From Eledone cirrhosa (Eukaryota), in the NCBI GenBank assembly GCA_964016885.1, contig OZ024753.1:46128001-46192000 (forward strand): 64,000 bases of DNA, read 5' to 3'. The notes beneath the pieces are model-generated. The model was not told where the DNA came from. It was given only the letters and a program-made list of their open reading frames with translations, and did not search any database. Below are positions 58,586 through 59,015 of the stretch, in pieces. Position numbers and translations under genes: made by a program. Every line of letters starts with the position of its first letter. Within the stretch, counting starts at the first letter, position 1.

Positions 58586-58593
<8 letters not shown>

Positions 58594-59012
58594 AGATCAA
58601 AAGATGGTTAAAGGAGTTCCATGTATTTTATTATGCGCATTTCAAAAACAAACATCATCATGCAATAATATTTGTGTTTTCATCAGATAAAACAGGAGAA
58701 CATGATATGAAGGCTAAAAAACACTTGTGGATAGTGCAGTTTTAAATCAACATATCAACATATGTTGATTTAAAACTGCACTATCCACAAGTGTTTTTTA
58801 GCCTTCATATCATGTTCTCCTGTTTTATCTGATGAAAACACAAATATTATTGCATGATGATGTTTGTTTTTGAAGTGCGCATAATAAAATACATGGAACT
58901 CCTTTAACCATCTTTTGATCTTATATTATGTATACTCCAGTCCTACAAACTGTAGAGTGCTTCTTATCCGATATCTGCATTGCTTTATTGTACTACAATA
59001 AAACTCACCTCC

Positions 59013-59015
<3 letters not shown>
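58586..59015 (+). mobile_element. Fold-back HHR element family A, copy 3
   Basis: 170-bp arms at 58586-58755 and 58760-58929 with a 4-nt loop. The minus-arm HHR is intact. The plus-arm HHR has GAAA>GAAG at 58875. Confidence 0.92.

Follow-up and report, generated by a model that had tools for sequence, protein, structure and literature searches.

At this locus a palindrome of about 430 bases lies within a TA microsatellite; each of its arms bears a hammerhead (HHR) motif, and one side has an additional tail. An earlier note had reported that the same base changes recur on both arms and had concluded that the palindrome is rebuilt or homogenised in each copy. The question raised by the locus is how two arms of one insertion came to carry the same letters. 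The window, i.e. the whole 64-kb stretch of DNA that was analysed, consists of AT-rich non-coding DNA, presumably of an animal, with (TA)n tracts throughout and contains no N. Three copies of the element (family A; c1, c2 and c3) are present in it, the palindrome at this locus being c3, and in all three the order is (TA)n, inverted tailless arm, centre, sense arm, 88-nt tail and again (TA)n. The features of family A are given below.

58449 to 58588, no strand: (TA)n at the left junction of c3, forming the adjoining end of a long TA-rich region; its final few bases could belong to the target or to the arm
58587 to 58755, minus strand (element sense on minus): inverted tailless arm of c3, 169 nt, with the c3 letters at 58623 and 58661
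58632 to 58686, minus strand: type I hammerhead motif of the inverted arm of c3, predicted by motif scan with intact core (CTGATGA, stem II, GAAA, a palindromic 6-nt helix III/loop, the TA cut site and an 8-bp stem I)
58756 to 58759, no strand: centre of c3, 4 nt, which makes a short repeat of the arm 5′ end
58760 to 58928, plus strand: sense arm of c3, 169 nt, with the c3 letters at 58854 and 58892 and a private G at 58875
58829 to 58883, plus strand: type I hammerhead motif of the sense arm of c3, predicted by motif scan, with GAAG instead of GAAA (position 15.1)
58929 to 59016, plus strand: one-sided tail of c3, 88 nt, with partial homology to the family B and family E tails
59016 to 59434, no strand: (TA)n at the right junction of c3
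8530 to 8899, plus strand: copy c1, with an inverted arm of 114 nt, a sense arm of 169 nt and a tail; minority haplotype on both arms
35539 to 36031, plus strand: copy c2, with two 169-nt arms, a 67-nt centre and a tail; minority haplotype on both arms

The outer junctions are identical in the three copies, save for a slightly different start of the right tract of c1, and the hairpin centres differ, both as described in the earlier note. The left arm of c1 is 55 nt shorter, the centre of c2 comprises 67 nt of templated repeats of the arm 5′ end, and the 4-nt centre of c3 includes a short self-complementary stretch. One 5′ end, located 69 nt ahead of the HHR core, is common to five of the six arms, and the predicted HHR cut site is read through by all six. 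TA repeats flank both sides of every copy, and a target-site duplication is unreadable inside (TA)n. At the right terminus, 88 nt are without a mirror partner in 3/3 copies. A TIR MITE was rejected on the grounds that the ends are not inverted repeats and that the 88-nt tail is one-sided; the argument of the earlier note against a static TIR MITE thus holds, given this unmirrored stretch and the HHR motif on each arm. A MITE nested within another element was rejected as well, the tail being attached in every copy and also in related families. Copy c3 itself sits inside a region of about 6 kb (53895-59868) of mostly degenerate (TA)n, with tracts of up to 1.2 kb.

Comparison of the three copies revealed five variable sites along the 169-nt arm. 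Copy c3 differs from c1 and c2 on both arms at arm position 95 (58854 and 58661) and at arm position 133 (58892 and 58623), so that the two doubled substitutions of the earlier note were correctly observed, as was the change GAAA>GAAG on one arm only (58875, right arm of c3). Besides 58875, single-armed variants were found at 35833 (right arm of c2) and at 8669 (right arm of c1), the partner position of the latter being absent from the left arm of c1, which is too short. The testable private changes are single-armed in both cases (2/2), with 58875 falling between the two mirrored sites, and lineage variants are mirrored in 3/3 copies. Two further sites that distinguish c3 from c1 and c2, 58931 and 58944, are located in the tail and had been missing from the earlier list. 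The chance that both mirrored changes recurred independently on the partner arm is about 1e-6, as roughly estimated from the private-change rate, and the mirroring is therefore real. In a distance matrix of the six family A arms, restricted to the window, the left arm of c3 groups with the right arm of c3, and c1 and c2 are not separable.

For the variant frequencies, Logan short-read contigs of organism A were placed on the sense arm and the tail (4393 contigs in X1 and 446 in X4). Element parts had been matched in 20 runs from 15 studies, of which X1 and X4 alone were examined in detail. No RNA run was listed among the matches, which has no bearing on expression. Organism A is the best match, with 0.91 of the sampled element words, and may not be the window's own species; the summed contig depth is a rough frequency only and not a copy number, and alternative letters were listed from 3% of the depth. 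The c1/c2 letter at 58854 accounted for 5.8% of the depth in X1 (9 contigs) and 3.7% in X4 (7 contigs), while at 58892, 58931 and 58944 no alternative letter with at least 3% of the depth was found in X1 or X4. At 58875 the letter A made up 99.9% of the depth in X1 and 94% in X4. Copy c3 is composed of the family majority letters plus one rare change, and c1 and c2 carry a minority haplotype on all four arms.

Since the c3 letters are in the majority in the contigs of organism A, the mirrored letters are lineage markers and not mutations of copy 3, and the reading of them as copy-specific mutations has to be given up. They show one source lineage for both arms of a copy, not one RNA molecule. 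Moreover, because there are two haplotypes among the three copies, the mirrored sites alone cannot demonstrate that each copy was built separately, one ancestral event being enough. The earlier proposal that the arms were templated from one source at insertion stands insofar as both arms carry one source haplotype; its other part, building per copy, does not follow from the mirrored sites and draws instead on the differing centres and on the other families described below. Copies c1 and c2 lie 27 kb apart with unrelated flanks and share the same four-site haplotype, which is below 3% at three of the sites in X1 and X4. This shared minority haplotype suggests either local clustering of the insertions of one source or that organism A differs from the host of the window.

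Further observations were made in the contigs. In X1, TA-rich loose contig ends are located at 58926 (8) and 58934 (33), and 12 and 11 contigs run on upstream of the arm 5′ end with other letters, from which we infer that longer forms or other junctions exist. The depth, which is not copy number, steps from about 2.1 to 1.1 million between arm and tail (58910-58936) in X1, and no such step is present in X4. Exact-pattern scans of metagenome_contigs and genome_contigs resulted in 0 matches.

On every family A arm a type I hammerhead motif was located, in which stem I measures 8 bp, stem II is long and the 6-nt helix III is palindromic. In total, the motif scan yielded 9 HHR motifs in the window, compared with a mean of 0.025 (maximum 1) in 40 shuffles. 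The two HHR cores of c3 lie on opposite strands with a spacing of 143 nt. Judged from the conserved HHR core, the sense-arm motif of c3 with GAAG is probably impaired, and the canonical G10.1-C11.1 pair is absent in the family A HHR. Rfam reported no hammerhead family at the gathering threshold on the whole window and none was present among the 61 matches to the element with E up to 10. The best sub-threshold Rfam matches to the element were miRNA families, with scores below gathering that reflect the long hairpin, and a miRNA identity was dropped. The stability of single-arm folds did not exceed that of shuffles (z −0.4 to −0.5). An HHR dimer, considered in the earlier note as a possible source of the arms, finds no support in the copies: all six family A arms pass the cut site, and a palindromic transcript would contain one sense and one antisense HHR. 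A cis HHR dimer inside the palindrome was rejected for the same reason, the second HHR being antisense.

Insertions with two arms also occur in four other families within the window.

18619 to 18989, plus strand: family B insertion B1, with an HHR on both arms, a tail of about 76 nt on the right arm, and arms that differ at 7/117 sites
36058 to 36256, minus strand: family D insertion D36, with a tailed arm of 140 nt and a tailless arm of 60 nt, 0 substitutions
45610 to 46035, minus strand: family E, a relative of family A, with a tail of about 90 nt on the left arm and a 19-nt templated centre
46765 to 47797, minus strand: family C, a partial tandem with a 466-nt non-coding unit, a compact HHR at 47044-47014 (minus) and an inverted arm with a 58-nt tail
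50045 to 50145, plus strand: family D insertion D50, in which the inverted arm corresponds to unit positions 13-60 and the sense piece to 97-140, without overlap

The arms of family E differ at 6/129 aligned sites and by a 33-nt deletion, and they have a common 5′ start point 65 nt before the HHR core; the family possesses the proximal end of family A and part of its tail. In family C, the 260-nt direct repeat shows 0 substitutions, and 0 substitutions were likewise found between the arms. The inverted arm of family C begins at the predicted HHR cut site (47491, with 1-nt ambiguity), which hints at a cleaved RNA as template for this arm; the family is retrozyme-like. Family D has the 3′ half of an HHR at most and was placed with the other families by its layout. 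Across families A-E the tails are 58-90 nt long, and one tailed and one tailless arm were present in 8/8 two-armed insertions (three of family A and five of the four other families), a count that omits inverted repeats without HHR or tail, e.g. 10409-10714. If each arm chose at even odds, the probability of this one-tailed pattern would be 0.004. Single-armed copies number four, each ending at or close to one of the two sites: B2 and D10 are tailless, D30 and D5 tailed. From the divergence of about 5-6% in B1 and E and of 0 in C and D36, we infer that arms are born identical and then decay independently; for B1, a chimera of two templates could also explain the arm divergence. The shared arm starts 69 nt (family A) and 65 nt (family E) before the HHR core suggest run-off at the 5′ end of an RNA.

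Taken as a whole, the element is very probably an ORF-less stub that has the insertion layout of Penelope-like elements (PLEs) and was built at insertion from one source. Its putative membership in the PLEs is argued from structure, and the layout itself has already been published for this group. An inverted 5′-truncated copy head-to-head with a sense copy was found in 3/3 family A copies and in the five insertions of other families, a tail extension at a single end in 8/8 two-armed insertions, a type I HHR motif inside the terminal repeat (by motif scan; Rfam does not detect it), and a bias to AT-rich or microsatellite targets in 3/3 family A copies. A partial tandem with direct pLTRs, also typical of PLEs, is present in family C, and none was seen in family A. 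A PLE RT or GIY-YIG ORF was not found, with 0 relevant Pfam hits in 136 stop-to-stop frames scanned within the window; these frames were taken from 227 passing the filter, shorter and tandem-repeat frames being omitted. The Pfam hits DUF7420 and Fusion_gly were dismissed, since both are below the cut-off. As no RT/GIY-YIG ORF was found in these frames, the mobilising partner has to be presumed and membership is structural.

PLE insertions have been described as 5′-truncated, often adjoining an inverted 5′-truncated copy, and as having a tail of 30-40 bp at one end; HHRs are located in the pLTRs of canonical PLE clades, microsatellites serve as targets, EN-mediated resolution has been suggested as the origin of the tail, and the origin of the inverted repeats and tails was identified as a question still to be answered (Craig et al. 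2021, PMC8557442). The same layout was described by Arkhipova et al. (2013, PMC3846280), who proposed self-priming on an antisense template for the head-to-head palindromes. With EN+ PLEs (Penelope/Poseidon, Neptune, Nematis, Hydra) the element shares the head-to-head inverted copy, the tail at one end, the HHR in the repeat, and insertion into AT-rich or (TA)n DNA in which a TSD is unreadable, and the partial tandem with inverted arm of these elements matches family C. In contrast to EN+ PLEs, the copies here are without an ORF, the tails are 58-90 nt instead of the published 30-40 nt, and 5/6 family A arms end at a common 5′ position where random truncation would be usual.

For PAc, a Poseidon element of Anolis carolinensis, the purified protein cleaves AT-rich DNA on both target strands and extends both, reverse transcription starts at two internal sites bounding the tail, and the protein is predicted to be a dimer; uncleaved RNA is used and HHR cleavage is unnecessary, the start site was no different between the strands in vitro, and second-strand synthesis was left unresolved by the in vitro work (Frangieh et al. 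2024, PMC11167929). The family A arms, which pass through the HHR cut site, are likewise consistent with an uncleaved RNA template. Unlike PAc, the family A HHR has no long ORF downstream; moreover, the accessible text of PMC11167929 does not derive an inverted arm from two-strand priming and describes no coupling of strand and start site in vitro. For metazoan PLEs, Cervera and de la Pena (2014, PMC4209133) reported minimal type I HHRs in opposite-strand pairs with a separation of 100-700 bp. The motifs of family A resemble them in the CTGATGA and GAAA boxes, the long helix II, the short palindromic helix III and the pairing on opposite strands, but differ in the missing G10.1-C11.1 pair, in a helix I of 8 bp and in being predicted from sequence. 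Non-LTR retrozymes are short non-coding elements with a type I HHR, which have been proposed to originate from PLE pLTRs (Li et al. 2026, 10.64898/2026.07.22.740005); they are similar to the present element in these properties and to family C in its 466-nt tandem unit. Their units, each with an HHR, are arranged head-to-tail, whereas family A is head-to-head. No tail-to-head joint of family A was seen among the joints listed in the X1 and X4 contigs, which cannot prove absence. In L1 twin priming, both target strands prime cDNA, which leads to an inverted segment, and two mostly non-overlapping parts of one RNA are copied; here, in contrast, the same 169 nt were copied twice from fixed start sites.

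For the formation of the two arms we propose a route of dual priming, in which the same source RNA would be reverse-transcribed twice at insertion, once for each arm; the arguments for and against this route are, in our judgement, about evenly balanced. A PLE RT/GIY-YIG protein encoded elsewhere would cut a (TA)n tract on both strands. At the right flank, the bottom-strand end would then prime at the distal start site and give rise to an arm with the 88-nt tail, and the top-strand end of the left flank would prime at the proximal start site and give rise to the tailless arm. Both cDNAs would cross the hammerhead, left uncut, and reach a fixed point about 69 nt ahead of its core, probably the 5′ end of the RNA, and the two cDNA 3′ ends would join head-to-head at the centre via short templated or microhomology junctions. 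Joining of this kind would cause the centres to differ among copies, and the origin of both arms from one source would place lineage variants on both arms and later mutations on one. Palindrome centres are unstable, and given this instability the differences between the centres may post-date insertion. Dual priming is favoured over a fold-back of a single cDNA, though not proven, by the one-tailed pattern in 8/8 insertions and by D50, the arms of which do not overlap, a product that a fold-back cannot make directly; D50 is a single example and could reflect a post-insertion deletion. By analogy with PAc, the lack of a strand difference in start site in vitro (PMC11167929) would speak against an enforced one-tail rule. 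As a more tentative generalisation, on which our doubts outweigh our confidence, PLE insertion might be a two-ended reaction, in which an RT-endonuclease dimer primes both cut strands, one per start site, copies one RNA twice and joins the cDNAs head-to-head. If this is true, each cDNA would be the second strand of the other, and the inverted pLTR, the one-sided tail, the mirrored lineage variants and the variable centres would be accounted for.

Somewhat unlikely in our view, yet simpler than dual priming as an explanation of the single tail, is a PLE-type insertion from a single cDNA whose 3′ end folds back and copies itself, with a second pass that stops or is cut at the proximal site and so leaves a one-sided tail. 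Both components are already in the literature, as antisense-template self-priming of PLE palindromes (PMC3846280) and as EN-mediated resolution of the tail (PMC8557442). Such a fold-back delivers a single tail per insertion without extra assumptions, identical arms follow from it, 7/8 two-armed insertions fit, and the self-complementary stretch in the centre of c3 is in agreement with it. The non-overlapping arms of D50 do not fit, the templated repeats in the centres of c2 and E would resemble the outcome of end joining more closely than that of a simple hairpin turn, and purified PLE protein extends both strands (PMC11167929). On account of D50 and the templated centres, dual priming is slightly preferred.

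Three further explanations were considered less probable. The constancy of both outer ends, and the sufficiency of one ancestral event for two haplotypes among three copies, would also be expected if the whole palindrome were a fixed mobile unit (foldback or MITE-like) whose arms were equalised once in a founder, with mirrored letters inherited and centres rearranged later; a TA target duplication inside a TA tract could be neither seen nor excluded. This reading is improbable in view of termini that are not inverted repeats, with their 88-nt one-sided tail, of the HHR motifs on the arms, and of a layout that recurs in five families together with single-armed copies ending at either site and the partial tandem in family C. 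Homogenisation of the arms at each locus after insertion, through arm-to-arm gene conversion or hairpin or cruciform repair, had been one of the options of the earlier note and is considered very improbable. Long palindromes beside (TA)n can extrude, and DNA-level template switching may occur, two perfect inverted duplications flanking TA tracts elsewhere in the window. Against homogenisation, however, 2/2 testable private changes are single-armed, and a single conversion tract would have covered 58875 between the mirrored sites unless this mutation came later; furthermore, the mirrored letters occur family-wide as alleles and are linked to variants in the tail, for which there is no partner arm, and the arms of B1 (7/117) and E (6/129) differ by about 5-6%. 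Least probable is an origin of the mirrored letters in assembly or polishing errors. TA tracts make palindromes difficult to assemble, and the raw runs X21 and X22 (organism C) gave 0 reads at the locus, but both letters at 58854 are present in the short-read contigs of two samples, c1 and c2 have four letters in common in spite of 27 kb of distance and unrelated flanks, and single-arm differences persist in c2 and c3.

In the literature covered, which left most subscription papers and older Penelope work outside, no explanation of the inverted arm by dual priming was found, and no test by mirrored subfamily variants. The structure is known already, and the value of the present case lies in a mechanistic test, which is modest, and not in the element. 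With short, abundant and young two-armed stubs that bear subfamily markers, dual priming and fold-back become separable by counting in one assembly, and the host offers very many natural insertion products for testing a two-ended reaction. Such stubs look like MITEs or miRNA hairpins and could be misannotated.

Several further repeats were observed in the window. Flanking sequence is duplicated in inverted orientation, around a TA-rich tract, at 19779-19837 / 20038-20096 (59 nt, 100%), at 55062-55102 / 55293-55333 (41 nt, 100%) and at 9243-9306 / 9401-9463 (64 nt, 98%). The geometry of these duplications is opposite to that of family A, and they possibly reflect replication fold-back at (TA)n or long-read artefacts. 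At 10409-10714, inverted arms of about 94 nt (92%) with a 115-nt spacer lie beside a TA tract, without HHR match or tail, and constitute a candidate for a true MITE. The related sequences at 2876-3306 and 53065-53327, which adjoin TA repeats, have imperfect inverted arms and inner segments that appear tRNA-like by eye; judged in this way, they are candidate MITE-like or SINE-derived elements. Two copies of another repeat, 89% identical and in opposite orientation, were found at 13720-13891 and 40372-40542, and this repeat is presumably SINE-like. The frames at 43068-43586 (minus) and 44958-45329 (minus), with a YADD motif and without Pfam match, resemble degraded pieces of a LINE RT. Between these two LINE-like fragments lies a minisatellite (43623-44917) with a 29-nt period and about 94% unit identity. 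Finally, a tandem array with a 615-nt period and about 6.7 units, 100% identical, extends from 20112 to 24212.
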